The notes below the pieces were generated by a model, which was not told the origin of the DNA, did no database searches, and saw only the letters and a program-made list of their open reading frames with translations. Of a stretch of 64,000 bases of DNA, positions 19,965 through 58,740 are shown in pieces. The stretch lies in assembly GCA_965221365.1 (NCBI GenBank), contig OZ244884.1:773493-837492 (forward strand), read 5' to 3'. Source of the stretch: Nitrospirales bacterium (GTDB lineage: Bacteria; Nitrospirota; Nitrospiria; Nitrospirales; UBA8639). The position numbers and the translations under genes are program-made. How positions within the stretch are numbered: position 1 is the first letter of the stretch; each line of letters begins with the position of its first letter.

Positions 19965-20030
19965 ATTGTGAACTCTTTTGCCCAGTCACAGCGTTGCTCT
20001 CGTTGCTCAGTCGCCCTCCTAGTCCACACC

Positions 20031-23529: not shown

Positions 23530-25315
23530 TGATTCGTCATTCCTGCGCATGCCCCCTTCCGTCGAACACGCACACACCACCAATCGTCATCCCCGACGTT
23601 TTTAATCGGGGATCCAGGGCTTTTTCTCTTTCCTTTGTTTCCTGGATGCCGGATCGGGGTCCGGCATGACGGTTGGGGGGGATGCCATGTCGAGTCCGGC
23701 ATGACGGTTGTGGGGCCTTTGCGTCCTTCCCCGACGCGCCCCATTCGTCGCACACGCACCTTCTTCGTCATTCCTGCGAAGACCTCCATTCGTCATCCGC
23801 ACGCGCTCCAATCGTCATTCCCGCGAAGACCACCAATCGTCATCCCCGTGAAGACCACCATTCGTCATCCGCACGCGCTCCAATCGTCATTCCCGCGAAA
23901 GCGGGAATCCAGGGTCGTTGCCTTTCCTTTTTTCTGGATGCCGGATCGGGGTCCGGCATGACGGAGGGGGGGGGGATGCCATGTCGAGTCCGGCATGACG
24001 TTGAGGGGGATGCCCGTCGCAACCGCACACACCACCAATCGTCATCCCCGACGTTTGTAATCGGGAATCCAGAGTCGTTGCCTTTCCTTTTTTCTGGATG
24101 CCGGATCAAGTCCGGCATGACGGTGGGGGGGGGATGCCATGTCGAGTCCGGCATGACGTTGAGGGGGATGCCCGTCGCAACCGCACACACCACCAATCGT
24201 CATCCCCGACGTTTGTAATCGGGAATCCAGAGTCGTTGCCTTTCCTTTTTTCTGGATGCCGGATCAAGTCCGGCATGACGGTGGGGGGGGGATGCCATGT
24301 CGAGTCCGGCATGACGTTGGGGGCCTTTGCGTCATTCCCCCACGCGCCCCATCCGTCGCACACGCGCCTTCTTCGTCATTCCTGCGAAGACCTCCATTCG
24401 TCATCCGCACGCGCTCCAATCGTCATTCCCGCGAAAGCGGGAATCCAGGGCCGTTGCTTTTTCCTTTTTTTCTGGATGCCGGATCAAGTCCGGCATGACG
24501 GAGGGGGGGGGGATGCCATGTCGAGTCCGGCATGACGTTGGGGGCCTTTGCGTCCTTCCCCGACGCGCCCCTTCCTTCGCACACACACCTTCTTCGTCAT
24601 TCCTGCGAAGACCTCCATTCGTCATCCGCACGCGCTCCAATCGTCATTCCCGCGAAAGCGGGAATCCAGGGTCGTTGCCTTTCCTTTTTTCTGGATGCCG
24701 GATCGGAGTCCGGCATGACGAAGGGGGGGATGCCCGTCGCACCCGCACACACCACCAATCGTCATTCCCGCGAAAGCGGGAATCCAGGGTTGTTGCTTTT
24801 CCTTTTTTCTGGATGCCGGATCGAGTCCGGCATGACGGAGGGGGGCCTGTGGTTTTTCTGGATGCCGGATCGGGGTCCGGCATGACGGAGGGGGCCTGTG
24901 GTTTTTCTGGATGCCGGATCGGGGTCCGGCATGACGGAGGGGCCTGTGCGTCATTCCCCGACGCGCCCCATTCGTCGCACACGCACCTTCTTCGTCATTC
25001 CTGCGAAGACCTCCATTCGTCATCCGCACGCGCTCCAATCGTCATTCCTGCGAAGACCACCATTCGTCATCCCCGACGTTTGTAATCGGGGATCCAGGGT
25101 CGTTGCCTTTTCCTTTCTTTCTGGATGCCGGATCGGAGTCCGGCATGACGGTGGGGGCCTGTGGTTTTTCTGGATGCCGGATCGGGGTCCGGCATGACGG
25201 AGGGGGGGATGCCATGTCAGAGCCCGGCATGACGGAGAGGGACGCGAGGTCAAGGCCCGACATGACGGTGGGGACGGCATGGCGAATGAAGGGCATGACG
25301 AAGAGAGGGCGTAAC
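23530..25315. repeat. Array 1 (1.8 kb) of the modular nested-palindrome repeat family, between divergent trmI and nfeD-like genes
   Basis: Dozens of modules in these forms:
- CGTCAT-TCCCGCGAAAGCGGGA-ATCCAGG
- CGTCAT-CCCCGACGTTTGTAATCGGGG-ATCCAGG
- pyrimidine-rich spacer (e.g. GTCGTTGCCTTTCCTTTTTT)
- CTGGAT-GCCGGATCGGGGTCCGGC-ATGACGG
- GATGCCATGTCGAGTCCGGC-ATGACG. Confidence 0.9.
24036..24351. repeat. 158-bp tandem duplication of a composite repeat unit inside array 1
   Basis: CAATCGTCATCCCCGACGTTTGTAATCGGGAATCCAGAGTCGTTGCC.. starts at both 24036 and 24194. About 135 bp are identical in the two copies, each including a G9 run. Confidence 0.85.
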
Positions 25316-25332
25316 GAAGAGGGGCTGTTTTC

Positions 25333-32664: not shown

Positions 32665-33735
32665 GGCGTCATCGGGGACCCGGCATGACGTTGTGGGCCT
32701 TGAGTCGTCATTCCCGACGCGCGTGCCATCCGTCATACACACGCGCCCAATCGTCATTCCCGCGAAAGCGGGAATCCAGGGCCGTTGCTTTTTCCTTTTT
32801 TTCTGGATGCCGGATCGGAGTCCGGCATGACGGTGAGAGGGATGCCAGGTCGAGGTCCGACATGACGTTGGGGCCTTGAGTCGTCATTCCGCGTCCCCGT
32901 CCGTCGCACCCGCGCACACGCCCCAATCGTCATTCCCGCGAAAAGCCTGCCCTCGACGTTTTTAATCGGGGGCGGGAATCCAGGGCCTTTGCCTTTGCCT
33001 TTTCCTCTGGATGCCGGGTCAGGCCCGGCATGACGGTGGGGGTCTGCCGTCATTATCGCACGCGCTCCGTCATTTCCATGAAGGCCCCCATTCGTCATTC
33101 CCGCGCGCCCCATCCGTCATTCCCGCGAAAACCACCAATCGTCATCCCCGACGTTTGTAATCGGGGATCCAGTGTTTTTTCTTTTTCCTTTCTTCCTGGA
33201 TGCCGGATCGAGTCCGGCATGACGAATGAGGCCTGTGGTTTTTCTGGATGCCAGGTCGAGTCCGGCATGACGTTGGGGCCTTGAGTCGTCATTCCGCGTC
33301 CCCGTCCGTCGCACCCGCGCACACGCGCCCAGTCGTCATTCCCGCGAAGGCGGGAATCCAGGACCGTTGCTTTTTCCTTTTTTTCTGGATGCCGGATCAA
33401 GTCCGGCATGACGGTAAGAGGGATGCCAGGTCGAGTCCGGCGTGACGGAGGGGAGGCCAGTGCGTCATTATCGCGCGCGCTCCGTCATTCCCGCGAAGAC
33501 CACCAATCGTCATCCCCGACGTTTGTAATCGGGGATCCAGGGCAGTTGCTTTTTCCTTTTTCTCTGGATGCCGGATCGGGGTCCGGCATGACGAATGAGG
33601 CCTGTGCCTTTTCCTTTTTCTGGATGCCGGATCGGAGTCCGGCATGACGGAGAGAGGGATGCCGGGTCGGAGCCCGGCATGACGGAGAGGGATGCCGGGT
33701 CAGTCACGGCATGACGACTGGGCGTGACACGGACG
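32665..33735. repeat. Array 2 (about 1.1 kb) of the nested-palindrome repeat family
   Basis: Same modules as array 1. It includes the 108-nt composite element at 32928-33035. Confidence 0.9.
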
Positions 33736-39204: not shown

Positions 39205-39545
39205 TCCGTCATTCCCGGACGCCTGCTCCACACCCCACGTGTCCTCGTCCGCCATTCTCGCGTCTCGCTCCGTCATTCCCGACGCGCCCGAGTTCGTCAT
39301 TCCCGCGAAAGCGGGAATCCAGGTCTTTGCTTTTTCCTTTTTTCCTGGATGCCGGATCGGGGTCCGGCATGACGGTTGGAAGCCTGCCGTCATTATCGCA
39401 CGCGCTCCGTCATTTCCATGAAGGCCCCTGTTCGTTATTCCCGCGCGCCCTCGTCTGTCATTCCCGTGAAGGCCCCTGTTCGTTATTCCTGCCAATGCCC
39501 TTTCCGTCATTCCCGCGAAAAGCCCCATTCGTCATCCCTGACGTT
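39205..39545. repeat. Array 3 of the nested-palindrome repeat family
   Basis: CGTCATTCCCGCGAAAGCGGGAATCCAGG...CTGGATGCCGGATCGGGGTCCGGCATGACGG plus degenerate CGTCAT modules. Confidence 0.85.
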
Positions 39546-39570
39546 TTCATGTTGCTAACTTGACGAACGT

Positions 39571-39599
39571 TTGATACTCACGTCAATTATTGTTATTTA
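39571..39599 (+). promoter_or_regulatory. Candidate sigma70-type promoter for the small 39622 gene
   Basis: TTGATA (39571-39576), 17-nt spacer, TATTTA (39594-39599). GAGGAG lies 11 nt upstream of ATG 39622. Confidence 0.45.
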
Positions 39600-39621
39600 T
39601 TATCGAGGAGTTAGGGCAAAC

Positions 39622-39825
39622 ATGGCAGTGATGCTTTCCAAGACGTACGAAGCATTTCGGGCGGCAGGCGCTCCAGATGACAAGGCGTGTGAAGCAGCCG
39701 AAGAGATCGCTGCGTTTGAAATTCGGTTGGCCAGCATCGAAAACCGACTTATACGTCTTGAAGTTCTGATAACTATTGTCCTTACCGGGGTCGTGAGTCT
39801 TGTAGTCAAAACCTTCCTTGCGTGA
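39622..39825 (+). CDS. Small coiled-coil protein with C-terminal TM helix (67 aa)
   Basis: MAVMLSKTYEAFRAAGAPDDKACEAAEEIAAFEIRLASIENRLIRLEVLITIVLTGVVSLVVKTFLA. The track start (TTG 39571) is unlikely. The gene sits in a low-GC segment between two repeat arrays. It recalls DUF1640-type proteins (memory only). Confidence 0.5.
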   Translation: MAVMLSKTYEAFRAAGAPDDKACEAAEEIAAFEIRLASIENRLIRLEVLITIVLTGVVSLVVKTFLA

Positions 39826-39854
39826 AAAGCATGCCGTCAAGTTAACTACTTGAT

Positions 39855-40035
39855 TCCCTTCTCTTTTCCTGGATGCCGGATCGGGGTCCGGCATGACGGT
39901 TGGTGCTTTTTCTTTTCTCTGGAATGCCGGATCAAATCCGGCATGATGAATTGTACGGATCCGGTATGACGTGTGGTCAGTGCCCGGCATGACGAATGGC
40001 GCCCGTGGTTTCCCTGGGTGCCGGGTCGGGAACCA
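39855..40035. repeat. Array 4 of the nested-palindrome repeat family
   Basis: CTGGATGCCGGATCGGGGTCCGGCATGACGG, then degenerate GCCGGATCAAATCCGGCATGATG and GCCCGGCATGACG modules. Confidence 0.85.
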
Positions 40036-44679: not shown

Positions 44680-47079
44680 ATGGCACGGGCCCGCACGTCA
44701 CCCAGAGGCGATGTCGCCCGAGCCCCTATCACTACGGTGCCGCTGGATCAGACCACGCGCCAGCGGTACCTGAACTACGCCCTGTCCGTGATTACCGCCC
44801 GTGCCCTGCCCGACGTGCGAGACGGGCTGAAGCCGGTGCAGCGCCGCATTCTGTTTTCCATGTTTCACAACCACCGGTTATCCCCCGACCGTCCGCCCAT
44901 CAAGAGCGCCAAGGTCGTGGGGTCGGTGATCGGCGAATGGCATCCCCACGGTGATTCCGCGGTCTATGACGCCATGGCCCGCATGGCCCAATGGTGGTCC
45001 CTTCGCGCGCCCCTCGTGGACGGTCATGGCAACTTCGGCAGCCTGGACGGGGACCCGCCGGCGGCGTACCGGTATACCGAAGCCAGGCTCACCCCGATCG
45101 CCGTCGAACTGCTGACCGAACTGAACAAGGACACGGTTGACTTCCAGCCGAATTACGACGGCAAGGACGAAGAACCGCTGATCCTGCCCGCTCCGTTTCC
45201 GAACCTGCTGGTCAATGGGTCCACCGGCATTGCCGTGGGGATGACCACCAACGTGCCCCCCCATAACCTCGAAGAAGTCATCAACGGAGCCGTGGCCCTG
45301 ATCGACGACCGAACGTGCACGACGTCCGACCTCATGAAGTCGATCAAGGGTCCCGATTTTCCCACCGGCGGGGAAATCCTGAACTCCCGAACCGAGCTTC
45401 GCGAGATCTATGAGACCGGCCAGGGGATGGTGCGCCTGCGCGGGGAGTTCACCGTGGTGCCGGGCTCGCATGGCAAATCCCGGATCGTCGTCACCTCGAT
45501 CCCCTTTGCCGTGGATAAAGCCACGATCCTCGAACGCATCGGCGAACTCATCGCCGGCAAAAAAGTGCCGCAGTTGGTGGACGTTCGCGACGAGTCCACG
45601 ACCGACGTCCAGATCGTGCTGGAACTTCAGAAGGACGCCGATGCCGACGTGGCCATGGCCTATCTGTTCAAACATACTCCACTCCAGGGTAATGTGTCCG
45701 TGAATCTGACGAGTCTGATTCCGGTTCCGGGAACCACGACCGTCCGTCCGCAATGCCTGCCCCTCAAGGAGATCCTCGAACAGTTCATCGATTTTCGCTT
45801 TGAAACGGTCACGCGCCGGTTGTCTCATGACCTGCGCATCCTGGAGCAACGGCTTCACATCCTGTCGGGGTTTCGCGTCATCTTCGATGCCCTGGACGAG
45901 GTGCTGACCATCATCCGTCAGAGTGACGGCAAAGCCGATTCCGCGAAAAAGCTGAAACGTCGATTCCGACTCGACGACGCCCAGACCCACGCGATCCTGG
46001 AGACGCCGATCTACAAGCTCTCCCGGACGGAAATCCAAACCATGTTGGATGAGCTGGCCGACAAGACGAAGCAGGCCCATGACCTCAAGACCCTGCTCGC
46101 CTCGAAGAGCAGGATGTGGAACGTCGTCAAGCAAGAGCTCCGGGCCCTCGCCAAGACGTATGGCGACAAACGGCGGACCAGGGTCGGACGACGCCAAGGG
46201 GACCCCGTCGAATTCGACCCCGAGGCCTACATCGTCAAGGAAGACGCCGTGGTGACGATTTCCACGGACGGATGGATTCGCCGCGTCGGGATGATCAAAG
46301 ACCTGTCGAAAGCCCGGCTCCGGGAAGGGGATACCCTCCTGACGGCCTTGATCGGCAGCACGGTGGATACCATGGTGTGCTTTTCGAATTTCGGTAGCGC
46401 GTACACCATTCGCATTGGCGATCTGGCCCCGGCTCGAAGCGGGTATGGCGATCCCGCGCAAAAGTTGTTCAAATTCAAAGACGGGGAACGCATCATTGCC
46501 GCGCTCAGTGCCGATCCCAGATGCGCGGCCTCGTCAGCTGAACGCCCCGCGACGTCGGCCCTTCCGCTTTTCGACGGAGCACCGTCACCCGCCCTTCGGC
46601 AAGGGCTCGCCGTCTCATCGGCCGGCATGGGCGTGCGCTTTGACGTGGCCCCCTTCAAGGAGCCCTCGACCCGACTCGGTCGAAAATTCATGAAACTCCG
46701 GGACCGGGAAGAAGTCGTGGGCGTCGAAACCCTGGACCCCGCGGCCACGTCCATCCTCGCGGTCGCCTCCCGACGCGGGCGCGCGCTCCTGTGCCAAGCC
46801 GAAGAAATCAGCGTGCTCTCCGGTGCGGGACGAGGGGTCACGGTCATCAAACTCGAGAGCGGGGACCACGTCATGGCCGTGCGCATGTTGTCGCGGAAAC
46901 AGGACCAGTTGATCGTCCTGAAACAGGACGGCGGCAAGCTCCCGATTTCGGCGAGGAAATACCAGCCCGTCAGCCGCGGGGGCAAGGGTCACGTGCTGTT
47001 CAAACGCGGAACCCTGAAAGGAGCCGAACCGTTGCCCGTCGAACTGCCGGTCCTCGATTCGGAACGTCACGACGCGTAA
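44680..47079 (+). CDS. Type IIA DNA topoisomerase subunit A (GyrA/ParC family; ParC-like length)
   Basis: YLNYALSVITARALPDVRDGLKPVQRRILF, HPHGD and the catalytic-Tyr region AAYRYTEARL. 799 aa. I saw no GyrA-box at the usual position in the CTD. Confidence 0.9.
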   Translation: MARARTSPRGDVARAPITTVPLDQTTRQRYLNYALSVITARALPDVRDGLKPVQRRILFSMFHNHRLSPDRPPIKSAKVVGSVIGEWHPHGDSAVYDAMARMAQWWSLRAPLVDGHGNFGSLDGDPPAAYRYTEARLTPIAVELLTELNKDTVDFQPNYDGKDEEPLILPAPFPNLLVNGSTGIAVGMTTNVPPHNLEEVINGAVALIDDRTCTTSDLMKSIKGPDFPTGGEILNSRTELREIYETGQGMVRLRGEFTVVPGSHGKSRIVVTSIPFAVDKATILERIGELIAGKKVPQLVDVRDESTTDVQIVLELQKDADADVAMAYLFKHTPLQGNVSVNLTSLIPVPGTTTVRPQCLPLKEILEQFIDFRFETVTRRLSHDLRILEQRLHILSGFRVIFDALDEVLTIIRQSDGKADSAKKLKRRFRLDDAQTHAILETPIYKLSRTEIQTMLDELADKTKQAHDLKTLLASKSRMWNVVKQELRALAKTYGDKRRTRVGRRQGDPVEFDPEAYIVKEDAVVTISTDGWIRRVGMIKDLSKARLREGDTLLTALIGSTVDTMVCFSNFGSAYTIRIGDLAPARSGYGDPAQKLFKFKDGERIIAALSADPRCAASSAERPATSALPLFDGAPSPALRQGLAVSSAGMGVRFDVAPFKEPSTRLGRKFMKLRDREEVVGVETLDPAATSILAVASRRGRALLCQAEEISVLSGAGRGVTVIKLESGDHVMAVRMLSRKQDQLIVLKQDGGKLPISARKYQPVSRGGKGHVLFKRGTLKGAEPLPVELPVLDSERHDA

Positions 47080-47087
47080 CCCCTGCT

Positions 47088-47850
47088 CCGTCATTCGCGA
47101 GAAGCCCCCCATTCGTCATCCCTGCGGCTCTCGTCGTCATTCCTGCGAAGACCCCCAATCGTCATCCCTGCGGCTCTCGTCGTCATTCCTGCGAAGACCC
47201 CCAATCGTCATCCCCGCCAATGCCCCTTCCGTCATCCCCGACGTTTGTAATCGGGGATCCAGGGCTTTTGCTTCTTCCTTTTTTCTGGATGCCGGATCGG
47301 AGTCCGGCATGACGGAGAGGGATGCCAGGTCGAGTCCGGCATGACGTTGAGGCCCTTGAGTCGTCATTCCGCGTCCCCGTCCGTCGCACCCGCACACGCC
47401 CCCAATCGTCATTCCCGCGAAAAGCCTGCCCTCGACATCTTTAATCGGGGGCGGGAATCCAGGGCCTTTGCCTTTTCCTTCTTCTGGATGCCGGATCGGA
47501 GTCCGGCATGACGACTGAAGGCCTGTGGTCCGTCATTGCTATGAAGACCACCATTCGTCATCCCCGACATTTTTAATCGGGGATCCAGGGCCTTTGCTTT
47601 TTCCTTTTTCTGGATGCCGGATCGGGGTCCGGCATGACGGAGAGGGATGCCAGGTCGAGCCCGGCATGACGGAGAGGGATGCCAGGTCGAGCCCGGCATG
47701 ACGACTGAAGGCCTTGAATCGTCATCCCCCGACGCGCCCAATCCGTCGCACCCGCCTCCAATCGTCATTCCCGCGAAAGCGGGAATCCAGGGTCTTTGCC
47801 TTTTCCTTCTTCTGGATGCCGGATCGGGGTCCGGCATGACGGAGAGGGAT
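47088..47850. repeat. Array 5 of the nested-palindrome repeat family (forward orientation)
   Basis: Modules as in array 1. It includes the 107-nt composite element at 47407-47513. Confidence 0.9.
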
Positions 47851-48011
47851 TCAGAGACAACTCGTGGAAAGGGTACCTCTGAAGCGTTGCAAAATGATCT
47901 ACCCGCCTGCCTGATCCGTTGAATGTTGCGCAATAATGGTGCATAATAGATACAAATAAGAGCTAAAAGGCGCTATATTGATGACAAATTGATTCTATTT
48001 GGAGACAAAAG

Positions 48012-48272
48012 ATGCCAAGAAGAAGCATTTCTATCACAGAAACACATAATGAATGGCTGAAAGCCCAAGTTGCGAGCGGACAATATCGCTCGGAAAGTGA
48101 AGTCATCAGCGATCTTATCCGGGACCGACAAAACCGGGACGCGGGCGTCGAGGCCATTCGCCTTGCGCTGATCGAAGACGAGAAATGCGGCCCCGGCACC
48201 CCCACGACTGAAAACGTCCGAACTGCGGTGCAGGAGCGATTACGGAAAAGCGGCCCGCTGCCCATTCAGTAA
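48012..48272 (+). CDS. ParD-type ribbon-helix-helix antitoxin-like protein (no cognate toxin gene adjacent)
   Basis: ISITETHNEWLKAQVASGQYRSESEVISDLIRDRQNRDAGVEAIRLALIEDE matches the ParD (COG3609-type) pattern from memory. GGAGA lies 6 nt upstream of the ATG. Confidence 0.75.
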   Translation: MPRRSISITETHNEWLKAQVASGQYRSESEVISDLIRDRQNRDAGVEAIRLALIEDEKCGPGTPTTENVRTAVQERLRKSGPLPIQ

Positions 48273-48483
48273 TCCCTTGCCGACTCGGATCGCCGCGGCA
48301 AATACGGAGTCCTGCCATATTCAGGATTGAGACCAAGCAGAGAAGAGGTCTACAGTTCAACTTATCCGGCACCCCGACCTTTCTGAAAATCGGCATAGAC
48401 GTCGACCGGAACGGGTCTTGACTGTCGATGCATCGCATGATGAACCCGACGCGGCAGATGAGGAATGCTAATGGAGAAAGCTG

Positions 48484-49743
48484 ATGATCACGCTGATTGA
48501 AGCACTGAACTACCGTTGCTTGCGGTACGTGCAGAGACCCCTGAAGCCGTTTCACGTCCTGGTCGGGCCGAACGCATCGGGAAAGACCACTTTCTTGGAC
48601 GTCATTGGTCTGCTGAGTGATCTCGTATCCAACGGGTTGGACGCCGCTCTGTCCGATCGCACCTCGAATCCCCAAGAACTCCTCTTTCGGCGCCAAGGTG
48701 ATGGGCTGGAATTGTTGATCGAGGCGCGCATTCCCGAGGAGCTTCGTCAGCAGACGTCGAAACCTGAACTGGACACAATAAGATATGAAGTGGCAATCGG
48801 CTTTGATGAAACGCGGCACCAATTCGAGTTGAAGGCCGAAACCCTGTTATTGAAGAAAGCCAAGGCCTTGAACCTGCCCCAACGCTCATTATTTCCCATG
48901 CCTCCCAGTACACCGGATTCCCTGCTGACCAAGTCCCGTCAACGGGGCAACAAGATCGTGATGAAAAAGATGCCGGGAGGAAACGACAATTTTTATAGTG
49001 AGAAAGATTCTCGTGCTGGCAAGGGTTGGGCACCCTCGATCAGATTGGGACCGGGGAAATCTGTCCTCGGCCATTTCCCTTTCGACGGAAATCAATTTCC
49101 CGTGGCTGCATGGTTTCGAGCATACTTAACCACTGGAGTTCAGCGGTTCGTGCTCAACAGCCATGCGATCAAGCACCCCAGTCCTCCCATGAAGTTTTCG
49201 GGGTTTTTGTCGGACGGCTCAAATCTTCCCTGGGTTGTGCGACGTCTCCGGAAGGACGATCCGGAACGGCACCGTGCTTGGATCGCTCATCTTCGGACGG
49301 CCCTTCCCGATCTGGTGGACGTTGCAACCTCTTTACGGAGAAACGACAGTCACTGCTATATGTTCTACGAATATGAAGGCAGGCTGAAAGTGCCTTCATG
49401 GCTGGTTTCCGATGGCACGCTCAGACTGACGGCCCTCACCTTACCTGCATATCTGAACGATCATCGAGGCATCTATCTGATAGAGGAGCCTGAAAACGGG
49501 ATTCATCCGAAAGCCGTGGCCACCGCGTATGATTCCCTCTCCTCGGTCTATGAGGCCCAGGTGTTGTTGGCGACCCATTCTCCGGTCGTCCTGAGCAAAG
49601 TCGACATGAAAGACGTGCTGTGCTTTGCCAAGAATGACGACGGCTCAACCGACGTCGTTCTTGGCTCTGAACATCCCTTGCTTCAACAATGGCAGGGTAC
49701 CACTGACCTTGGGACCTTGCTCGCCTCCGGGGTCCTGGGATGA
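48484..49743 (+). CDS. SMC/RecF-like ABC ATPase (AAA_15/AAA_21 type) without a fused nuclease domain
   Basis: Walker A GPNASGKTT, signature-like SDGTLRL, Walker B IYLIEEPENGIHP and H-loop LATHSP. GGAG lies 7 nt upstream of the ATG. Confidence 0.85.
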   Translation: MITLIEALNYRCLRYVQRPLKPFHVLVGPNASGKTTFLDVIGLLSDLVSNGLDAALSDRTSNPQELLFRRQGDGLELLIEARIPEELRQQTSKPELDTIRYEVAIGFDETRHQFELKAETLLLKKAKALNLPQRSLFPMPPSTPDSLLTKSRQRGNKIVMKKMPGGNDNFYSEKDSRAGKGWAPSIRLGPGKSVLGHFPFDGNQFPVAAWFRAYLTTGVQRFVLNSHAIKHPSPPMKFSGFLSDGSNLPWVVRRLRKDDPERHRAWIAHLRTALPDLVDVATSLRRNDSHCYMFYEYEGRLKVPSWLVSDGTLRLTALTLPAYLNDHRGIYLIEEPENGIHPKAVATAYDSLSSVYEAQVLLATHSPVVLSKVDMKDVLCFAKNDDGSTDVVLGSEHPLLQQWQGTTDLGTLLASGVLG

Positions 49744-50369
49744 CCAGAAAAAACCTCATTGTTCTCGCAGCCGATAAAAACATCGAATATGCTCTGAAAG
49801 GACTGTTCAGCAGACCCGAAGCACTCGGAATCCGTCGAATTGAGACGGAGATTTTCATTCATCCCCGCCGTGACCCCGGGTGCGTGCAAGACGGCGTTGC
49901 ATTTCTGTCCAACTTCTCGGAGCAATATGACTACGGTCTGCTCATGTTTGATTATGCAGGAAGTGGGAAAGAGCGAAAGCAACAGCCCAAGGAGTTACAG
50001 GAGCTGCTGAACCATGAATTGGACGGTTCGGGATGGCATGGGCGAGCCAAGACAATCGTGTTGTTGCCGGAGATTGAGGCGTGGATCTGGAGTGATTCTC
50101 CCCACGTTCCCGACGTGGCAGGATGGAAGCGTCGGCAGCCGTCACTTCGACAATGGCTGATTGAGCAAGGCTGGCTCGAAAAAGATGCCGTCAAACCCAA
50201 TCAACCAAAAGAGGCGTTCCTGGCAACCTTGCGCGAGGCTCGCACGCAGCGCAGTGCATCCCTGTATCAGCAGATTGCGGAAAAAGTTTCCTTACGTCGA
50301 TGCAAGGATCATTCGTTTCAGGAATTCAGAGACATTCTGAGAGCCTGGTTCCCACAAGAGAGCCAATGA
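49740..50369 (+). CDS. Small partner of the ATPase (209 aa), possibly DUF4276-like
   Basis: ATGA start/stop overlap with the ATPase gene. Motifs LIVLAADKNIEYAL, LLMFDYAGSG and LLPEIEAWIWSD. The family assignment is from memory and unverified. Confidence 0.7.
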   Translation: MTRKNLIVLAADKNIEYALKGLFSRPEALGIRRIETEIFIHPRRDPGCVQDGVAFLSNFSEQYDYGLLMFDYAGSGKERKQQPKELQELLNHELDGSGWHGRAKTIVLLPEIEAWIWSDSPHVPDVAGWKRRQPSLRQWLIEQGWLEKDAVKPNQPKEAFLATLREARTQRSASLYQQIAEKVSLRRCKDHSFQEFRDILRAWFPQESQ

Positions 50370-50438
50370 TGAGTAACAACTGACGTCACACGTTGCGGAT
50401 TGCCGGAAAATACAACCGCAGAACACGGCAAGCGGGGC

Positions 50439-51983
50439 ATGACCCTGGCCAAAGCCTTTCACGCAAGCGACCAGAGTCTGCCAATGGATGCAGACAGATT
50501 CCAGCCCTTGCCGACGCCGAGCTACGATAGCAATGAGCCTCCAGGACAATCCCCGATGAGCCGTCGTGTCGCCACTTCAACCCACTTATGCGAGCGCCCG
50601 ATGTCATGGGTTAAAGCGAACCCTGGGTTGGCTGTTCTGTGGGCTCTGCTTTTCATATTCGTTCTGATTTTCGCGACTTTCCTGTTCGTCATGTTCTCCG
50701 AGGATTGTGAAGCATGGATCGGCCAACGTTTGGGGTTATCCGAAAAAAACGAAATTCTCTCCTTTCTGGGAATCGGCATGGGTGGCATCCTGCTGACCAT
50801 ACAAGCCGTGATCGCGAACAGGCGCGCTAAAGCGATGGAAGAGCAAGCGAAAGCGCAAGTCACGGCCACGGAAAATCAGGCAGAGGCCAACCGACAAACC
50901 GAGAGAGGGCAGCGGCAGGAACGCCTGAAACTCGGCATTGAACACCTGGGACACGGCTCATACTCCGTGCGGCTGGGCGGGGCTTATGAACTGTTCCACC
51001 TTGCTCAGGATACAGAAGAACTGCGCCAGACGGTTCTGGACATTCTCTGTGCTCATCTCCGCCAAACTACGGGCAAAACGGACTATCGGGAGCAATACCC
51101 TAACAAGCCTTCAGAAGAAGTTCAAAGCCTGCTGACCCTGATGTTCGTAGAGGAACATACAGTCTTCGAGGGCCGGCGGATCAATTTGCAAGGAAGCTGG
51201 CTGAATGGGGCCCGGCTCTGGAAAGCGCGCCTGCAGGAAGCCAACCTTACAGATGCACACCTGCAAGGAGCCTACCTTGTAGCTGCACGCCTACATAAGG
51301 TTAATCTCGCAAAGGCACAACTCCAAGGTTCTATTCTTCATGTCGCGTGCCTGAATGGAGCCTTCCTTGCAGATGCACACCTGCATGGGGCTGATCTCGA
51401 AGAAGCAGAAGCGAAAGGCTTTTATTCTAATCTCCAGAGAGCGCACTTGTATGGAGCTAATCTTGCGGGCGCGAAGCTGCAAGGAGCACGTCTTTCTAGC
51501 GCATTCCTTCGAGGAAGTATTCTTGATCATACGCACTTAGAAGGAGCTGCTCTTTCGAAGGCCTCCCTACAAGGAGCGAACCTTGTTGGTGCCTCCCTGC
51601 AAGGAGCTACACTCAGAGGCGCTCATCTGGGAGGAACCACGACTCATGGGTCTTATAATGACATGTCTTTCCCTGAGCGCATAAGAAAGCAGATCGGCAA
51701 GCCCTCTGAGTTTATCAATGCGACCTTCGCGGGCGGATTGAACCAAGAAGACGTAGACTCCAGCGTCCAAGGATTGGACGACCAACAGGCAAACTTGTTA
51801 CGTCGGATACTCAACCCCCATATCAACAGGCCAGCCAGCAATCAACTACCGGAAAACAGCGAGGCCAATACCGGAACCTATTCCTCAGAAGATGCCGAAC
51901 AATGGATCGCCGAATACGAAAAGGCTATGGCGAAGGACAAAGACCGCTCAACCCATGCCAAATCTGAACTGGTTGACCCATGA
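50439..51983 (+). CDS. Membrane-anchored pentapeptide-repeat protein
   Basis: Two TM helices (LAVLWALLFIFVLIFATFLFVMF; ILSFLGIGMGGILLTIQAVIA), a coiled coil rich in A/E/Q/R, then about 30 A(D/N)LxX-type pentapeptides (ANLTDAHLQGAYLVAARLHKVNLAKAQLQGS...). The start is uncertain (TTG 50400, ATG 50439, ATG 50601). GC is visibly lower than the flanks. Confidence 0.8.
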   Translation: MTLAKAFHASDQSLPMDADRFQPLPTPSYDSNEPPGQSPMSRRVATSTHLCERPMSWVKANPGLAVLWALLFIFVLIFATFLFVMFSEDCEAWIGQRLGLSEKNEILSFLGIGMGGILLTIQAVIANRRAKAMEEQAKAQVTATENQAEANRQTERGQRQERLKLGIEHLGHGSYSVRLGGAYELFHLAQDTEELRQTVLDILCAHLRQTTGKTDYREQYPNKPSEEVQSLLTLMFVEEHTVFEGRRINLQGSWLNGARLWKARLQEANLTDAHLQGAYLVAARLHKVNLAKAQLQGSILHVACLNGAFLADAHLHGADLEEAEAKGFYSNLQRAHLYGANLAGAKLQGARLSSAFLRGSILDHTHLEGAALSKASLQGANLVGASLQGATLRGAHLGGTTTHGSYNDMSFPERIRKQIGKPSEFINATFAGGLNQEDVDSSVQGLDDQQANLLRRILNPHINRPASNQLPENSEANTGTYSSEDAEQWIAEYEKAMAKDKDRSTHAKSELVDP

Positions 51984-52034
51984 TGAAGTCCTTTGCGCTG
52001 CCATGCGCGGCCTCGGTTGCTGGAAGAGGGCGCG

Positions 52035-52400
52035 GGGATGACGATTCAAGAGCCTCATCCGTCATGTCGGACTCCGATCCGGCACCAGAAAGACTGAAAG
52101 ACAAGACAAAGAAAAAGCCCTGGATTCCCGCGTTCGCGGGAATGACGTATTTGGACGCCGGACTCCTCCATTCGTCATGCCGGCCCTGACCTGGTGGCCA
52201 GAAAAGCAAAGGCACCAGTCGTCATGCCGGACCCCGATCCGGCATCCAGAAAAAAGGGAAAAGCAAAGACCCTGGATTCCCGCCCCCGATTAAAAACGTC
52301 GAGGGCAGGCTTTTCGCGGGAATGACGGATCGGGGCATTGGCGGGGATGACGAATGGTGGTCTTCGCGGGAATGACGAACTGGGCGTGCGGGAATGACGG
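52035..52400. repeat. Array 6 of the nested-palindrome repeat family (reverse orientation)
   Basis: CCGTCAT-GTCGGACTCCGATCCGGC-ACCAG...CTGGAT-TCCCGCGTTCGCGGGA-ATGACG and related modules. Confidence 0.9.
52208..52327. repeat. 120-bp perfect direct repeat, copy 1 (copy 2 at 53320-53439)
   Basis: Character-by-character comparison shows AAAGGCACCAGTCGTCATGCCGGACCCCGATCCGGCATCCAGAAAAAAGGGAAAAGCAAAGACCCTGGATTCCCGCCCCCGATTAAAAACGTCGAGGGCAGGCTTTTCGCGGGAATGACG is identical at both sites. Confidence 0.9.
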
Positions 52401-52500
52401 GCTGGGGGGACTCAAAAGTCGATCGATTCCATCGATGTGGTGCACTCGATTCGTTCTGCCACTCTATGGTCCACGCCCTACAGCCTGCCTTGTGGAGGCC

Positions 52501-52546
52501 TTGAAACGACTCATTCCTTAATGTAATAATTTCTTACATCCTTACA
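52501..52546 (+). promoter_or_regulatory. Candidate promoter/operator of the AbrB-PIN cassette
   Basis: TTGAAA (52501-52506), 17-nt spacer, TAATAA (52524-52529). The inverted repeat ATGTAA/TTACAT (52521-52526 / 52534-52539) overlaps the -10. A second TTACA lies at 52542-52546. Confidence 0.45.
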
Positions 52547-52558
52547 ATCCTGAATGTC

Positions 52559-52783
52559 ATGCTTGCCAAACTGACATCAAAAAACCAGTTGACTCTCCCG
52601 AAAGCGATATTGGCCGCTTTCGAAGGGGTGGAGTATTTTGAGGTAACCGGAGCGAATGGCTCCATCGTTCTGACGCCCGTGCAGATCAGTCGCGTGGGCA
52701 CCGTGCGCGCCAAGTTGGCCGCATTGGGCCTGTCCGACGCAGACGTGGCCGACGCTGTGGCTTGGGCGCGTCAAGCGGAATGA
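52559..52783 (+). CDS. AbrB/SpoVT-fold antitoxin (VapB/MazE-like)
   Basis: MLAKLTSKNQLTLPKAILAAF is a swapped-hairpin AbrB-type N-terminus. Its stop overlaps the downstream PIN gene start (ATGA). Confidence 0.75.
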   Translation: MLAKLTSKNQLTLPKAILAAFEGVEYFEVTGANGSIVLTPVQISRVGTVRAKLAALGLSDADVADAVAWARQAE

Positions 52784-53220
52784 GCCCACCCCGAGTTGTC
52801 ATCGATACCAACGTGCTGCTTTCGGCACTCCTGTTTCAGGCCGGGACGCTCTCCTGGCTACGCACGGCTTGGCAGGCCCGCCGCATCTGTCCACTGGTAA
52901 GCCGCGAAACGATGAACGAATTGCTTCGAGCGCTGGGCTATCCGAAGTTCGCCCTGACCAACGACGAGCGGGAGGAGCTGCTGGCGGATTATCTGCCCTG
53001 GTGCGAAACCGTCCACGTATCGAAACCGTCAGGGATTCCACCGTGCCGTGATCCATTCGATCTCCCTTTCCTTGAACTTGCGCGCGTGGCTCAGGCCGAT
53101 GCCTTAGTCACCGATGACAAGGATCTGCTTGATATGGCTCAAGGCTTTCCCATTTCGATTCTCACCCCTCGCGCCTTCCGTAAGCGCCTCCCACCCGCCA
53201 AACGGCCGGTGAAGTCGTAG
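52780..53220 (+). CDS. PIN-domain toxin (VapC-like)
   Basis: VVIDTNVLLSALLF... and LVTDDKDLL carry the acidic PIN residues. ATG 52780 overlaps the antitoxin stop. The track start is TTG 52762. Confidence 0.8.
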   Translation: MSPPRVVIDTNVLLSALLFQAGTLSWLRTAWQARRICPLVSRETMNELLRALGYPKFALTNDEREELLADYLPWCETVHVSKPSGIPPCRDPFDLPFLELARVAQADALVTDDKDLLDMAQGFPISILTPRAFRKRLPPAKRPVKS

Positions 53221-53302
53221 AGCGCGCGTTGGTTACATCGCCCGGGGAGGACAAATTCGGATTCAAGTGGCTGGCTGAAACGGTCGCGTTTCAAACATGG
53301 GG

Positions 53303-53485
53303 GCATGCGGGAATGACGGAAAGGCACCAGTCGTCATGCCGGACCCCGATCCGGCATCCAGAAAAAAGGGAAAAGCAAAGACCCTGGATTCCCGCCCCCG
53401 ATTAAAAACGTCGAGGGCAGGCTTTTCGCGGGAATGACGATTGGGACGCGTGAGGTGTGGAGGGGCATGCGCGGGGATGACGAAT
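53303..53485. repeat. Array 7 of the repeat family (contains copy 2 of the 120-bp perfect repeat, 53320-53439)
   Basis: See 52208-52327. The 3' extension ATTGGGACGCGTGAGGTGTGGAGGGGCATGCGCGG is shared with array 8. Confidence 0.9.
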
Positions 53486-53639
53486 GGGGCGTGCTGTGGA
53501 TAGAGAACGAGAACCTGCACAGGCCATCGTCTCGGTTATTGGAAGAGGTGACCGGGGCGGCGGTAAGGACAGGTGTTGGCGTTGACTCAAAAATCGTTTG
53601 ACGTTTGCACCTTACCGCTTTGCATAGTATGTTTTTGCC

Positions 53640-53927
53640 ATGCTCCGGTCATGGCGCAACACGGCGAGCCGCCAAATCTGGGAAGGAAAACGGCTCAACA
53701 GATTCCGTGGTCTGGATTTTGATATGGCTATCGATTTGTTGCTGGCGCTGAATGCCGCTGAAACGATTCGAGACGTGAGTCCACTCAAGAGCGTTGGGCT
53801 GCACAAACTCAAGGGGGAGCGAAAAGGACAATGGGCGATGACCGTAAACGGACCTTGGCGGATTTGCTTCGGGTTTCGTAAAGGTGACGCATTCAATGTC
53901 GAGATTGTCGATTGCCACAGAGGATAA
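53640..53927 (+). CDS. higB: HigB-type (RelE-fold, plasmid maintenance system killer) toxin
   Basis: 95 aa with ..LHKLKGERKGQWAMTVNGPWRICFGFRKGDAFNVEIVDCH, the typical HigB C-terminus. It is followed 4 nt later by higA. Confidence 0.8.
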   Translation: MLRSWRNTASRQIWEGKRLNRFRGLDFDMAIDLLLALNAAETIRDVSPLKSVGLHKLKGERKGQWAMTVNGPWRICFGFRKGDAFNVEIVDCHRG

Positions 53928-53931
53928 AACC

Positions 53932-54216
53932 ATGCACCCTATTGCACACCCTGGCAGATTGTTGAAGCGCGAGATTGAGGCGCGCAACTTGAGCGCCAAT
54001 CGGTTGGCCTTAGCTCTCGGCGTTCCTTCTGGCCGTATCACGGATATCTTGAACGGCCGCCGATCCATCACGGCTGAGACCGCAGTGCGGCTTGGCCGCT
54101 ATTTCGGCAACAGTCCCCGTTTCTGGCTCGAGCTCCAGAGCCAATACGATGTTGCCCTGGTCGAACGTGACCGCGGCACAGAAATAGCCGAACAGGTGCG
54201 GCCTGCCCGTGCCTGA
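53932..54216 (+). CDS. higA: HigA-family HTH (XRE) antitoxin
   Basis: HPGRLLKREIEARNLSANRLALALGVPSGRITDILNGRRSITAETAVRLGRYFGNSPRFWLELQ. ATG 53932 follows AGAGGA. The track start is GTG 53884, inside higB. Confidence 0.85.
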   Translation: MHPIAHPGRLLKREIEARNLSANRLALALGVPSGRITDILNGRRSITAETAVRLGRYFGNSPRFWLELQSQYDVALVERDRGTEIAEQVRPARA

Positions 54217-54282
54217 CGGCGTCGGCGGAATCCATCAAGGTGTTCGACGAACAGGCTCGACAGCTCGTTGCGGAGACGTGTT

Positions 54283-54540
54283 TGGAGGCCGGACTCCTCC
54301 ATTCGTCATGCCGGACCCTGATTCGGCATCCAGGGGAAAAAAGAAAAAGTAAAAGCCCTGGATCCCCGCCCCCGATTAAAAAAGTCGAGGGCAGGCTTTT
54401 CGCGGGAATGACAATTGGGACGCGTGAGGTGTGGAGGGGCATGCGCGGGAATGACAGACTGGGCGCCGGGAATGACTGAAGGGGCGTGCGAAAGGGACAA
54501 GGCCTTGCAGGAATGACGGACGGGGGATCGGGATGCCAGG
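54283..54540. repeat. Array 8 of the repeat family (diverged third copy of the 120-bp element at about 54303-54411)
   Basis: CGTCATGCCGGACCCTGATTCGGCATCCAGGGGAAAAAAGAAAAAGTAAAAGCCCTGGATCCCCGCCCCCGATTAAAAAAGTCGAGGGCAGGCTTTTCGCGGGAATGAC. Confidence 0.85.
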
Positions 54541-54573
54541 GGGGAAACGACGGGGATCATCGAAAGGACTTCC

Positions 54574-56490
54574 ATGACTGCTAAATACGATGCGAGCGAA
54601 ATTCTTGTGCTGGAAGGGATTGACCCGGTTCGCCGAAGACCGGCGATGTACATCGGCGGGACCGACAAGACCGGCCTGCATCATCTCGTGTGGGAAATTC
54701 TGGACAATGCCATCGACGAAGTCATCAATGGGTATGCCACGATGATCACGGTGGAACTCGATAAGACGGGTGACGGCATTCGCATCACCGACAACGGTCG
54801 CGGGATTCCGGTCGATCAGCACAAGCAATACAAAAAGTCGGCACTGGAAATCATCATGACGACGCTCCACGCCGGCGGCAAATTCGAAACCGGCAGCTAC
54901 ATCCATTCCGGCGGATTGCACGGGGTCGGGGCCTCGGTGGTCAATGCCCTCTCCGATTACATGGAAGTCACCGTGAAACGGCACGGGCATGAATGGCAAC
55001 AACGGTATCGGGCCGGCAAGCCCCTGGGGCCGGTCAAACAGGGGAACGCGGCGCGGGGCACGGGCACGTCGGTGTATTTTCGCCCGGACCCGATCATTTT
55101 CGGGAAGCAGACGACCTTCGATTCGACCCTGTTACGGAACACGCTGGAAGCCAAATCCTATCTGCACAAAGGACTCCGGCTCTCGTTCAAGGACGGGCAC
55201 ACGCACGAGTTCGTCCATGAGCAGGGTATCGAAGAATACCTCGTCAAGCTCGTGAAGGATCGTGGCTCGAACCCCACTGCGGACTTCGTGTTTTATCTGG
55301 AGCGTCGCCTGGACAACACCGCTGCGGACGGCTTTGCCATGGAAGTCGCCCTGCAATGGACCGATGAACCCGCGGAATTCATCCGGAGTTACGTGAACGG
55401 CGTGGCCACGTCGAGCGGCGGCACGCATGAATCGGGTCTGCGCAGCGGCATCGTGAAGGCCATGCGTCATTACATGGAGACGCACAACCTCACGCCGAAA
55501 GGGCTCAGTATCCAGGCCGATGATATTCGCGAAGGCATGGCCTGCGTCCTGAGCGTTCTCATTCTGTCTCCGCAATTTCAGGGCCAGACCAAGGAACGGC
55601 TCAATAATCCCGAGGTCCAGGGGCTTGTGGACAACGCCCTGCGACCACCCCTGGAAAATTTTCTTCACGAAAATCAAACCATTGCCGAAACCCTGGTCGG
55701 CCGCATGATCCTGGCGGCGCGCGCGCGGGAAGCGTCCCGTGAGGCGTCAAAGGCCGTCATCCGCCAATCTGCCGTGAGTCATCGCCTGAATCTGCCGGGC
55801 AAGCTGACGGACTGCCAAAGCACGGATCCTGCATGCAGCGAGCTGTTCGTGGTGGAAGGGGATTCCGCAGGAGGGACAGCCAAGCAGGGCCGCGATCTGA
55901 ACACCCAGGCCATCTTCCCCATCCGGGGCAAGGTGCTGAACACGGAGGAACTGACCCTCGGCAAGGTGGTGGAGAACAAGGAACTGTCGGACCTGGTCAA
56001 AGTCCTGGGCTGCGGGATCGGGCGGGATTTCGATCTCAAGAAGTTGCGATACCACAAGATCATCCTGCTCATGGACGCGGACGTCGATGGCTACCACATC
56101 AGCACGTTGCTGCTTACCTTCTTTTTCCGGCACGTCCCGGAATTGATCAGGCAGGGATACGTGTATCTTGCTCAACCGCCCCTCTACCGCATCGACGTGG
56201 GGAAGACCGTCCATTGGGCAGGCTCGGATGAAGAGAAGGAACACGTTCTGGCCAAGGCCCCGGGCAATACCAAGCCGGTCATCAGCCGATTCAAGGGGCT
56301 CGGCGAAATGTTTCCTCAACAGCTCAAGGAGACGACAATGGATCCCGGGACGCGCCGGCTCCTGAAAGTCGAACTGCAGGATGAACTCGATACCGACCGC
56401 ACCTTCCGGGATCTCATGGGCAAACGCACCGAAGCCCGGTATGAGTTTCTGATGGCCAATGCCGCCCTCGCCGATCATCTGGACGTGTAG
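54574..56490 (+). CDS. Type IIA DNA topoisomerase subunit B (GyrB/ParE family; 638 aa)
   Basis: LEGIDPVRRRPAMYIGG, LHHLVWEILDNAIDE (GHKL ATPase), EGDSAGG (Toprim), PIRGKVLN and LMDADVDGYHI. Confidence 0.9.
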   Translation: MTAKYDASEILVLEGIDPVRRRPAMYIGGTDKTGLHHLVWEILDNAIDEVINGYATMITVELDKTGDGIRITDNGRGIPVDQHKQYKKSALEIIMTTLHAGGKFETGSYIHSGGLHGVGASVVNALSDYMEVTVKRHGHEWQQRYRAGKPLGPVKQGNAARGTGTSVYFRPDPIIFGKQTTFDSTLLRNTLEAKSYLHKGLRLSFKDGHTHEFVHEQGIEEYLVKLVKDRGSNPTADFVFYLERRLDNTAADGFAMEVALQWTDEPAEFIRSYVNGVATSSGGTHESGLRSGIVKAMRHYMETHNLTPKGLSIQADDIREGMACVLSVLILSPQFQGQTKERLNNPEVQGLVDNALRPPLENFLHENQTIAETLVGRMILAARAREASREASKAVIRQSAVSHRLNLPGKLTDCQSTDPACSELFVVEGDSAGGTAKQGRDLNTQAIFPIRGKVLNTEELTLGKVVENKELSDLVKVLGCGIGRDFDLKKLRYHKIILLMDADVDGYHISTLLLTFFFRHVPELIRQGYVYLAQPPLYRIDVGKTVHWAGSDEEKEHVLAKAPGNTKPVISRFKGLGEMFPQQLKETTMDPGTRRLLKVELQDELDTDRTFRDLMGKRTEARYEFLMANAALADHLDV

Positions 56491-56507
56491 GCCGCGCCCT
56501 TGCTCCC

Positions 56508-56755
56508 ATCCGTCATGCCGGACTTGATTCGGCGCCAGAAAAAAGAAAAGGCAAAGGACCTGGATTCCCGCTTTCGCGGGAATGACGTATTTGGAGGCCG
56601 GACTCCTCCAGTCGTCATGTCGGACGCGGTCCGGCGCCAGAAAGACTGAAAGACAAGACCAAGAAAAAGCCCTGGATCCCCGATTACAAACGTCGGGGAT
56701 GACGAATGGGGGCGTGCGCGGGAATGACGGATCGGGGCATTGGCGGGGATGACGA
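56508..56755. repeat. Array 9 of the repeat family (reverse orientation)
   Basis: CCGTCATGCCGGACTTGATTCGGCGCCAG...CTGGATTCCCGCTTTCGCGGGAATGACG ... CTGGATCCCCGATTACAAACGTCGGGGATGACG. Confidence 0.9.
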
Positions 56756-56803
56756 GATACACCCAATGCTCTGTCATGGCCCAGGGTCTGCACAGACGGG
56801 GCT

Positions 56804-58584: not shown

Positions 58585-58740
58585 CTTTGCTTTTTCTTTT
58601 TTCTGGATGCCGGATCAAGTCCGGCATGACGGTGGGGGATACCGGATCGGAGTCCGGCATGACGACTGCTCGCCTGTGGTCTTCTGGATGCCAGGTCGGA
58701 GTCCGGCATGACGGATTGTAGGTATCCGGCAGGACGGCAG
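58585..58740. repeat. Array 10 of the repeat family (forward orientation)
   Basis: CTTTGCTTTTTCTTTTTTCTGGATGCCGGATCAAGTCCGGCATGACGG ... CTGGATGCCAGGTCGGAGTCCGGCATGACGG. Confidence 0.85.

Follow-up and report, generated by a model that had tools for sequence, protein, structure and literature searches.

In a 64-kb stretch of Nitrospirales DNA (the window, whose positions are used as coordinates throughout), the genes for subunits A and B of a type IIA topoisomerase are separated by a 7.5-kb interval holding toxin-antitoxin (TA) modules, a candidate phage-defence pair, a pentapeptide-repeat protein (PRP) and arrays of a structured repeat. We find that this A-B spacer is probably a long-standing defence and TA hot spot of one sponge-type Nitrospirales clade, which was later overlaid by an independent expansion of the repeat, and that the arrays are probably not needed for the variability of the locus. 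The original prediction, made from the letters of this stretch, had described an accessory island between cognate subunit genes, with subunit A ending at 47079 and subunit B starting at 54574, both on the plus strand. Comparison with relatives bears this out, as both the content of the interval and its length vary between lineages, and the genes between the subunits are found where they had been placed.

The two topoisomerase genes form a cognate pair, as had also been assumed: the A-type and B-type domain sets are both full, and the adjacency of the two genes on the same strand is conserved across the Nitrospirales. Subunit A scores below the NCBIfam equivalog cutoffs for gyrA and parC, and subunit B below those for gyrB and parE. 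Because both pass only subfamily models, we call the enzyme a second type IIA topoisomerase without choosing between gyrase and topoisomerase IV.

To place the interval among relatives, one genome per species was scanned, which gave 80 Nitrospirales loci, and the further loci L142, L143, L145-L148 and L151-154 were examined as well. The gene order M23, subunit A, subunit B, nitroreductase-like gene is conserved across the order, in most of the 80 loci. For 50 species with at most 77% subunit A identity to the window and both genes on the contig, the A-B gap is 42-340 bp in 46 and 478, 1710, 2611 and 8796 bp in the remaining four. Within a clade at 82-87% subunit A identity, 15 gaps were measured, with lengths from 54 bp in L004 up to 9646 bp in L009, and the gap exceeds 10 kb in L001 and L012. 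Related genomes had been expected to show a short or differently filled gap; the distant species show the former and the clade, with its differing modules, the latter.

The gaps of this clade hold varying subsets and orders of four modules that are also present in the window, namely a ParD-like gene, an AbrB-PIN pair, HigBA and PRP. Additional cargo in the relatives comprises a further PIN gene, HipA, IS481 and IS1595 transposases, a methyltransferase-glycosylase fusion, a Schlafen-type protein, Phd-VapC, PifA (2.8e-108) and a complete type III restriction-modification (RM) pair (MTase_III 3.9e-198, REase_III 5.5e-182). The locus therefore has the properties of a hot spot, with the same two conserved flanking genes, content that differs between genomes, and cargo enriched in defence, TA and mobile genes. 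Shared modules have diverged to a core-like extent, with identities of 91-93% for HigA, 76-85% for ParD, 72-81% for AbrB and 70-78% for PIN, as compared to 82-87% for subunit A; HigBA is 88-93% identical in L005, L007, L012 and L020. In the window, the G+C content of the islet genes is 52-60%, versus 62% for the window as a whole.

Arrays of the repeat are absent from all 80 species-level loci, where only single hairpin fragments after A or before B were seen, and from L147/L148 and L151-154; they are limited to the window lineage, consisting of the window, L145 and L146. Modules adjoin one another in relatives with plain spacers, as in L005, where AbrB-PIN, ParD, HigBA, a DnaJ-domain gene and a Phd-VapC pair follow each other directly. 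ParD abuts subunit B in L002, L006, L011 and L034. AbrB-PIN lies directly after subunit A and before ParD in the array-free relatives, and behind PRP only in the array-bearing lineage (window and L146). Decayed genes are also present: a 5' stub of PRP follows ParD in L005 and L020, fragments of the type III RM genes Mod or Res remain in L001, L009 and L056, and a remnant of an MqsA-like antitoxin gene that resembles one of 31 nt in the window also follows higA in L005.

Two contigs from the same sample (L147 and L148, ERZ21830300) capture such variation between close relatives. Over 8.7 kb they match at 98.3% identity, up to a point within the repeat region of PRP (at about 8690) where the two part. 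The right halves of their islets differ, one running straight to subunit B and the other having a HigA-like gene and, in addition, a second PRP with Mod. The hot spot is thus structurally polymorphic among close relatives that occur together, in the absence of arrays.

The A-B linkage may be broken, or the gap very long, in three further loci. In L013, L014 and L015, the 10 kb after subunit A contain core-type genes (HtrA-like protease, sigma-70 factor, prolyl oligopeptidase, M20 peptidase) and subunit B is not reached; in L013, the junction after subunit A is occupied by HipA and an IS481 transposase.

The repeat that fills the spacers of the window lineage has a full unit of 77-108 nt, composed of CGTCAT, hairpin 1, ATCCAG-(about 20 nt, pyrimidine-rich)-CTGGAT, GCCGGA-TCGGGG-TCCGGC and ATGACG, that is, three hairpins enclosed by the 6-bp inverted ends CGTCAT/ATGACG. 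For RNA and DNA alike, the fold of full units is a four-way junction (z-scores of -2.8 to -4.6). Hairpin 1, ATTCCCGC-GAAA-GCGGGAAT, occurs in three forms within the window and in further forms elsewhere; compensatory changes are found at three of its five pairs, and 99% of cells remain paired. The other helices carry no weight for covariation because they are fixed by the way in which the copies were collected. The fold and the compensatory changes in hairpin 1 agree with the earlier description of the repeat as structured. Upstream of full units are tandem 21-25-nt 'head' fragments of the 5' end, and downstream are 32-nt 'tail' fragments of the 3' end. The window contains 60 CGTCATYCC sites and 45 CCGGCATGAC sites, nearly all of them in nine intergenic clusters, with about three elsewhere. 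Together, the nine arrays make up 8.7% of the window, and the four in the A-B interval make up 21% of that interval.

In being extragenic, short, imperfectly palindromic and present in many copies, the repeat resembles the REP/BIME type. REP/BIME of enterobacteria and NIME/dRS3 of Neisseria are short, imperfectly palindromic extragenic repeats that form mosaic, fast-evolving spacer arrays, in which BIME units alternate in orientation. The repeat described here likewise clusters into mosaic, fast-evolving intergenic arrays, and hairpin 1 fits the dRS3 pattern ATTCCC-N8-GGGAAT. Unlike REP/BIME, its unit is a longer four-way junction with CGTCAT/ATGACG ends, lacks a GTAG-type 5' motif, and keeps a single orientation within any one array. 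A search of the whole window against Rfam at the gathering threshold gave no match, and a search with an array at a permissive E-value gave solely a chance-level match to CC3552 (20 bits versus a gathering score of 50). ARAGORN reported neither tRNA nor tmRNA genes, and the cloverleaf-like unit is accordingly not classed as tRNA-like. Miniature inverted-repeat transposable elements have inverted ends, lengths of 50-500 bp and target duplications; the full units have 6-bp inverted ends and lengths of 77-108 nt, and no consistent target duplication was seen at them. The exact 30-mer of hairpin 3 is present in 56 JGI metagenome contigs (41-68% G+C) and two IMG/VR contigs, and many of these matches have the same overall architecture with a covarying hairpin 1, usually as a single copy.

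The closest relatives show how quickly the arrays change. L146, from another sample, encodes a subunit A that is 99.4% identical to that of the window, with coding DNA at about 98-99%, and it has the gene order of the window with arrays at the same junctions and in the same orientations. Array 1, at 757 nt in the window, is about 300 nt in L146 (7358-7655), and array 5, at 260 nt in the window, is about 440 nt (14265-14704). L145 is 98.3-98.9% identical to the window across 22.6-37.4 kb, and its arrays measure 692 nt (876-1567) versus 1633 nt (window 23532-25164) and 530 nt (9070-9599) versus 999 nt (window 32691-33689). With roughly two-fold differences in length between contigs whose genes are 98-99% identical, the arrays change faster than any other feature of this lineage. 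One unit at an orthologous position differs between the window and L146 just by a 29-nt hairpin inserted in its first loop. Exact-protein look-ups for PIN, HigA and subunit B matched only the source contig and gave no strain variants.

Table 1. Features of the A-B interval, its flanks and the other repeat arrays of the window
Feature	Position	Strand	Evidence or remark
Type IIA topoisomerase subunit A, left core flank	44680-47079	+	Pfam DNA_topoisoIV 6e-140; NCBIfam NF004044 761 bits (cutoff 654)
Repeat array 1	47089-47845	+	Directly after subunit A; four composite units: heads, one full 79-108-nt unit, 32-nt tails
ParD-like ribbon-helix-helix gene, without ParE partner	48012-48272	+	Pfam ParD_antitoxin 1.4e-9; TIGR02606 45.1 bits, just under cutoff 46.2
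11-bp direct repeat CCCTTGCCGAC, left copy	48274-48284	+	Bounds MAD3-MAD4 segment
MAD3 / HEC-01A AAA_21 ATPase, candidate phage-defence protein	48484-49743	+	NCBIfam antiphage_MADS3 491.5 bits (cutoff 420); PADLOC HEC-01A 6.6e-40
MAD4 / HEC-01B partner of ATPase	49740-50369	+	NCBIfam antiphage_MADS4 215.9 bits (cutoff 160); PADLOC HEC-01B 3.6e-5
11-bp direct repeat CCCTTGCCGAC, right copy	50505-50515	+	Bounds MAD3-MAD4 segment
Membrane-anchored PRP	50556-51983	+	Pfam Pentapeptide 4.6e-31; N-terminal hydrophobic segments
Repeat array 2	52030-52410	-	After PRP; paralogous to array 5 (89-100% over shared segments)
AbrB-type antitoxin	52559-52783	+	Weak AbrB/MazE fold match, 0.0056
PIN_3 toxin, with AbrB a VapBC-like module (52559-53220)	52780-53220	+	PIN_3 6.8e-21; TIGR00305 55 bits (cutoff 29)
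Repeat array 3	53300-53500	-	After PIN; contains 53320-53439
HigB toxin	53640-53927	+	HigB-like_toxin 1.3e-8
HigA antitoxin	53932-54216	+	TIGR02607 HigA 86.5 bits (cutoff 47.7)
31-nt remnant of MqsA-like antitoxin gene 3' end (as in L146)	54250-54280	+	Sequence comparison; downstream of higA
Repeat array 4	54290-54545	-	After HigA; mosaic of array-2-like left flank and array-3-like right flank
Type IIA topoisomerase subunit B, right core flank	54574-56490	+	Pfam HATPase_c, DNA_gyraseB, Toprim, DNA_gyraseB_C; NF004189 773.7 bits (cutoff 740)
Repeat array 5	56500-56760	-	Outside interval; between core genes subunit B and nitroreductase-like gene
Repeat array	23535-25325		Between TrmI and NfeD
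Repeat array	32680-33716		Between POT transporter and hydantoinase B
Repeat array	39207-39984		Between FG-GAP protein and MlaA
Repeat array	58605-58715		Directly after nitroreductase-like gene

The arrays had been read as the borders of the modules, all in one orientation. Borders of this kind are indeed found after PRP, PIN and HigA, where the three arrays share an orientation. Array 1, the largest in the interval, is inverted relative to arrays 2-5, and the junctions between ParD and MAD3 and between MAD4 and PRP (two of the six module junctions) have no array. As arrays also occur between ordinary core genes and are missing from two junctions of the islet, they mark long intergenic spacers in general. 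Their number in the islet, and hence their resemblance to cassette borders, follows from the many short operons there, which provide many spacers.

The candidate defence genes MAD3 and MAD4, whose reading frames overlap at the MAD3 stop and MAD4 start, allow one change in the islet to be followed at the nucleotide level. L146 lacks both genes; it has a single copy of CCCTTGCCGAC where the window has two, the 2.2 kb between the copies is missing, and no array lies at these borders. We considered a fresh insertion of MAD3-MAD4 into the window lineage with an 11-bp target duplication, a reading we gave up in view of the presence of ParD-MAD3-MAD4 in two other species and of a junction right of MAD4 that is colinear between L147 and the window; the absence from L146 is thus more simply explained as a deletion between the 11-bp repeats. 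The trio lies between A and B in L147/L148 and L151-154, at loci without arrays, and MAD3 is 83% identical between the window and L147, as is subunit A. A grouping of ParD and PRP as one two-gene module that was split by MAD3-MAD4 was likewise dropped, as L151 has its PRP-Mod-Res block elsewhere (order A, AbrB-PIN, ParD-MAD3-MAD4, a helix-turn-helix gene, PRP-Mod-Res) and the grouping is uncertain.

The pair passes the NCBIfam equivalog cutoffs for MAD3 and MAD4 and matches HEC-01A and HEC-01B, so that the two-gene PADLOC candidate HEC-01 is complete. The full set mad1-mad8 of MADS, the methylation-associated defence system, which includes a methyltransferase, is not present; unlike in MADS, there are just these two genes with no other mad genes nearby, their neighbours are ParD and PRP, and a ParD-like gene precedes the pair in this clade. 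That arrangement is found in three species (window 48012-50369; L147 5484-7883; L151 6689-8883), without ParE or other mad genes. The ribbon-helix-helix ParD-like protein may regulate MAD3-MAD4 rather than act as an antitoxin.

An alternative to descent with loss is that the content turns over mainly by lateral replacement, with incoming DNA of related strains exchanged by recombination in the conserved flanks (A and B, or ParD and PRP) and a minor part for vertical descent with loss. The model for this is the minimal mobile element of Neisseria, defined by Snyder et al. 2007 as two conserved genes with different whole-gene cassettes between them, which are exchanged by homologous recombination in the flanks after transformation (definition quoted in PMC3082526). 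The A-B locus fits the gene arrangement of this definition, two conserved genes around differing cassettes. The distribution of MAD3-MAD4 on the subunit A tree is patchy, with the pair present in the window, L147 and L151 and absent from L146 and all 23 GTDB representatives of the clade, which is compatible with exchange, and MAD3 homologues of 70-85% identity occur in several phyla. Against this alternative, no block of altered divergence across the flanks was seen between the window and L146, where coding sequence is about 98-99% identical on both sides of the islet and within it. The one departure is the repeat-coding C-terminal half of PRP, at 82-86% (51260-52000 versus L146 8969-9700) compared to about 98% elsewhere. 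Divergence of the modules also tracks that of the core. We regard lateral replacement as the main source of turnover as unlikely, if still worth keeping in mind.

A second alternative, which is closest to the original prediction, is that the arrays are active sites at which recombination or insertion captures, excises and reorders self-contained cassettes, much like an integron without an integrase. Chromosomal integron arrays such as the Vibrio superintegrons, which also contain many TA cassettes, similarly consist of co-oriented small modules separated by copies of a structured element. In addition to the displacement of AbrB-PIN in the array-bearing lineage, three observations are in favor of this idea. 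First, AbrB-PIN is flanked by direct repeats of 120 nt (52208-52327 on the minus strand and 53320-53439) that are 100% identical, whereas other copies are 60-93% alike. Second, arrays 2-5 share segments in mosaic fashion, a sign of exchange between them. Third, in L146 the 5' two-thirds of higB has been replaced by a DUF4258 toxin gene and an MqsA-like zinc-ribbon antitoxin gene (11116-11587 versus window 53396-53822), and the left breakpoint of this replacement sits at the edge of array 3.

Against these stand the general distribution of the arrays and the behavior of relatives that lack them. Arrays are equally present between core genes, array-free relatives vary in content as much or more, two of the junctions have no array, the MAD3-MAD4 indel used an 11-bp repeat, and array 1 is inverted. 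Moreover, the elements flanking AbrB-PIN in L146 are not identical to each other, so the 120-nt identity in the window is explained as well by recent gene conversion as by a scar of insertion. No integrase or transposase domain was detected among the annotated genes of the window or of the 2.5 kb beyond it, and neither attC core motif (GTTRRRY or RYYYAAC) is present in any of the five arrays; on both counts the earlier reading had anticipated the result. With their CGTCAT/ATGACG ends and four-way junction, the units also differ from the bulged hairpin of attC. Integron cassettes are mostly promoterless single open reading frames (ORFs), each delimited by one recombination site, whereas the modules here have two to four genes and conserved upstream regions, and are bordered by multi-unit arrays of 200-760 nt. 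Nor does mobility depend on the repeat, given that AbrB-PIN, ParD, MAD3-MAD4, HigBA and PRP all occur between A and B in array-free relatives. All four defining features of an integron cassette array that we tested, including attC architecture and, within the window and the 2.5 kb beyond it, IntI, are thus lacking. A candidate promoter for each module had also been noted. Sigma-70-like matches precede ParD, the ATPase and AbrB, yet the total of six falls within the chance expectation of 3.9 ± 1.8, as do the counts of the promoter and terminator scan generally, so that the claim gains little from them and promoters particular to each cassette are not supported.

Taken together, an integron-like, repeat-driven mechanism is not supported, and we consider it doubtful that the arrays are active sites of cassette capture. 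Similarly doubtful is the broader proposal that the repeat represents a novel type of non-autonomous element, mobile or recombinogenic, whose arrays would reshuffle small operons without an integrase by excision between copies and reinsertion at another array, with AbrB-PIN as a fresh example.

It is also conceivable that the position of the island is functional, with ParD (from the family of antitoxins to the gyrase poison ParE) and PRP (by its Qnr/MfpA fold) modulating the flanking topoisomerase, so that part of the island would be a dedicated accessory operon. The adjacency of ParD to the start of subunit B in four loci (noted above) and weak matches of PRP to the MfpA (4.5e-11) and Qnr (1.7e-7) models are compatible with this. 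However, all Qnr and MfpA scores are far under the cutoffs (43 versus 360 bits and 31 versus 240 bits), and PRP proteins of 475-527 amino acids with N-terminal hydrophobic segments do not resemble the soluble Qnr/MfpA proteins of about 180-220 amino acids. ParD precedes MAD3 in three species, the A-B gap of L004 is 54 bp, and in most Nitrospirales the gap is empty. PRP homologues, furthermore, occur in an altogether different context. They lie directly upstream of type III Mod-Res in L008 (12969-18424), L142 (4001-9515), L143 (4001-9344) and L151-154 (L151 11265-15254). L142 and L143 are from two unrelated large genomes in which the PRP stop overlaps the Mod start, a sign of translational coupling, and no topoisomerase gene is nearby. 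We judge a functional role of the position to be very improbable.

PRP may be a so far overlooked accessory component in certain type III RM systems. The window PRP lacks the Mod-Res genes that follow its homologues in relatives, and PADLOC has no model for PRP. A comparison of PRP with plasmids returned distant homologues only (33-49% identity), in mobile or defence-like contexts without type III RM, and is uninformative on the operon link.

Finally, hardly any weight attaches to the possibility that the island is only apparent, an artefact of repeat-rich sequence mis-joined in a low-coverage (5.96x) long-read contig: the name of the contig (ena:ERZ26695579:ctg115524_5.96x_l, 80,277 nt) does indicate about 6x coverage, and repeat arrays are prone to assembly error, but the same contig is recorded for two samples, the independent L146 contig has the same gene order with arrays at the same junctions, and the same modules are found between A and B in species-level relatives, many of which have chromosome-level assemblies.

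The most coherent account of these observations is therefore a hot spot of some age with a later and separate expansion of the repeat. An early member of the clade would have acquired modules in the A-B spacer, among them AbrB-PIN, ParD with MAD3-MAD4, HigBA, and PRP with type III Mod-Res. Descendants would then have diverged by piecemeal loss, through events such as the 11-bp microhomology indel of MAD3-MAD4 and breakpoints in the repetitive PRP gene; remnants of PRP, Mod, Res and an MqsA-like gene are present as well. Occasional gains may have brought in PifA, HipA, the DUF4258/MqsA-like pair and the IS481 and IS1595 elements, and the order of modules was probably reshuffled locally. Modules would persist because TA and RM genes are addictive and because a spacer between two co-oriented genes tolerates insertions. 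We read the islet as old and mostly eroding and rearranging, with occasional gains. Separately and later, the structured repeat of about 80 nt would have invaded the window lineage genome-wide, filling most long spacers, core and accessory alike. The arrays would be at most a local substrate for homologous recombination or gene conversion, for which the identical 120-nt copies around the relocated AbrB-PIN may be an example.

Several points weigh against this account. The polarity of events is taken from parsimony on a neighbor-joining tree of one protein, and 'genome-wide' refers to about 80 kb of this genome, with nine arrays in the window, and to two related contigs. MAD3-MAD4 is absent from all 23 GTDB representatives of the clade, so lateral transfer among lineages is a rival to an ancestral presence with many losses. 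Both the arrays and the position of AbrB-PIN behind PRP are confined to the window lineage, which makes a repeat-mediated move possible; the identical copies flanking the displaced AbrB-PIN and the toxin-replacement breakpoint at array 3 in L146 are the residual support for an involvement of the repeat.

Hot spots of this general type are known from other bacteria. Core-gene-flanked defence hot spots such as cDHS1 and cDHS2 of Pseudomonas aeruginosa have medians of 6-26 kb, and most instances are without a dedicated integrase (PMC10250203). As in cDHS1 and cDHS2, the fixed interval between core genes holds varying defence combinations in most genomes of the clade. Unlike in these, the interval is smaller (0.05 to >10 kb), type II TA pairs dominate, and the genes for the subunits of one enzyme are split; the comparison sets species-level metagenome-assembled genomes here against hundreds of isolates there. 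Restriction-modification gene complexes have been described as units that are mobile or unstable, with short direct repeats on either side (PMC2853133). Similarly, the islet includes a defence block that differs in presence between close relatives and has a short direct repeat at its borders, and the islets of relatives carry type III RM genes and their decayed remnants. Here, however, the block is MAD3-MAD4, and its 11-bp repeat is more probably the site of a deletion in L146 than the product of target duplication upon insertion. Enrichment in TA modules has been reported for the sponge Nitrospirales genus Ca. Nitrosymbion (PMC11812461).

At some distance from the islet, the minus strand of the window (3-19985) has one open frame of at least 6,661 codons that extends past the start of the window and resembles a gene for a giant repetitive surface protein. 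This frame contains tandem repeats of 279-291 nt in three arrays, with 61-96% matches. Six long ORFs on the plus strand at 1-20 kb have no Pfam match and are shadows of the giant minus-strand gene.

For sponge-associated Nitrospirales, these results provide a hot spot that is easily located by anchoring on the two topoisomerase subunit genes and reading between them, and which could serve as a source of candidate defence and TA systems of uncultured symbionts. They also call for caution in inferring an integron-like architecture from sequence alone, because repeats that have spread into all intergenic spacers can pass for the borders of cassettes. More novel than the islet itself, though none is yet a demonstrated mechanism, are the fast-evolving structured repeat, the coupling of PRP to type III RM in unrelated genomes, and the recurring ParD-MAD3-MAD4 trio.

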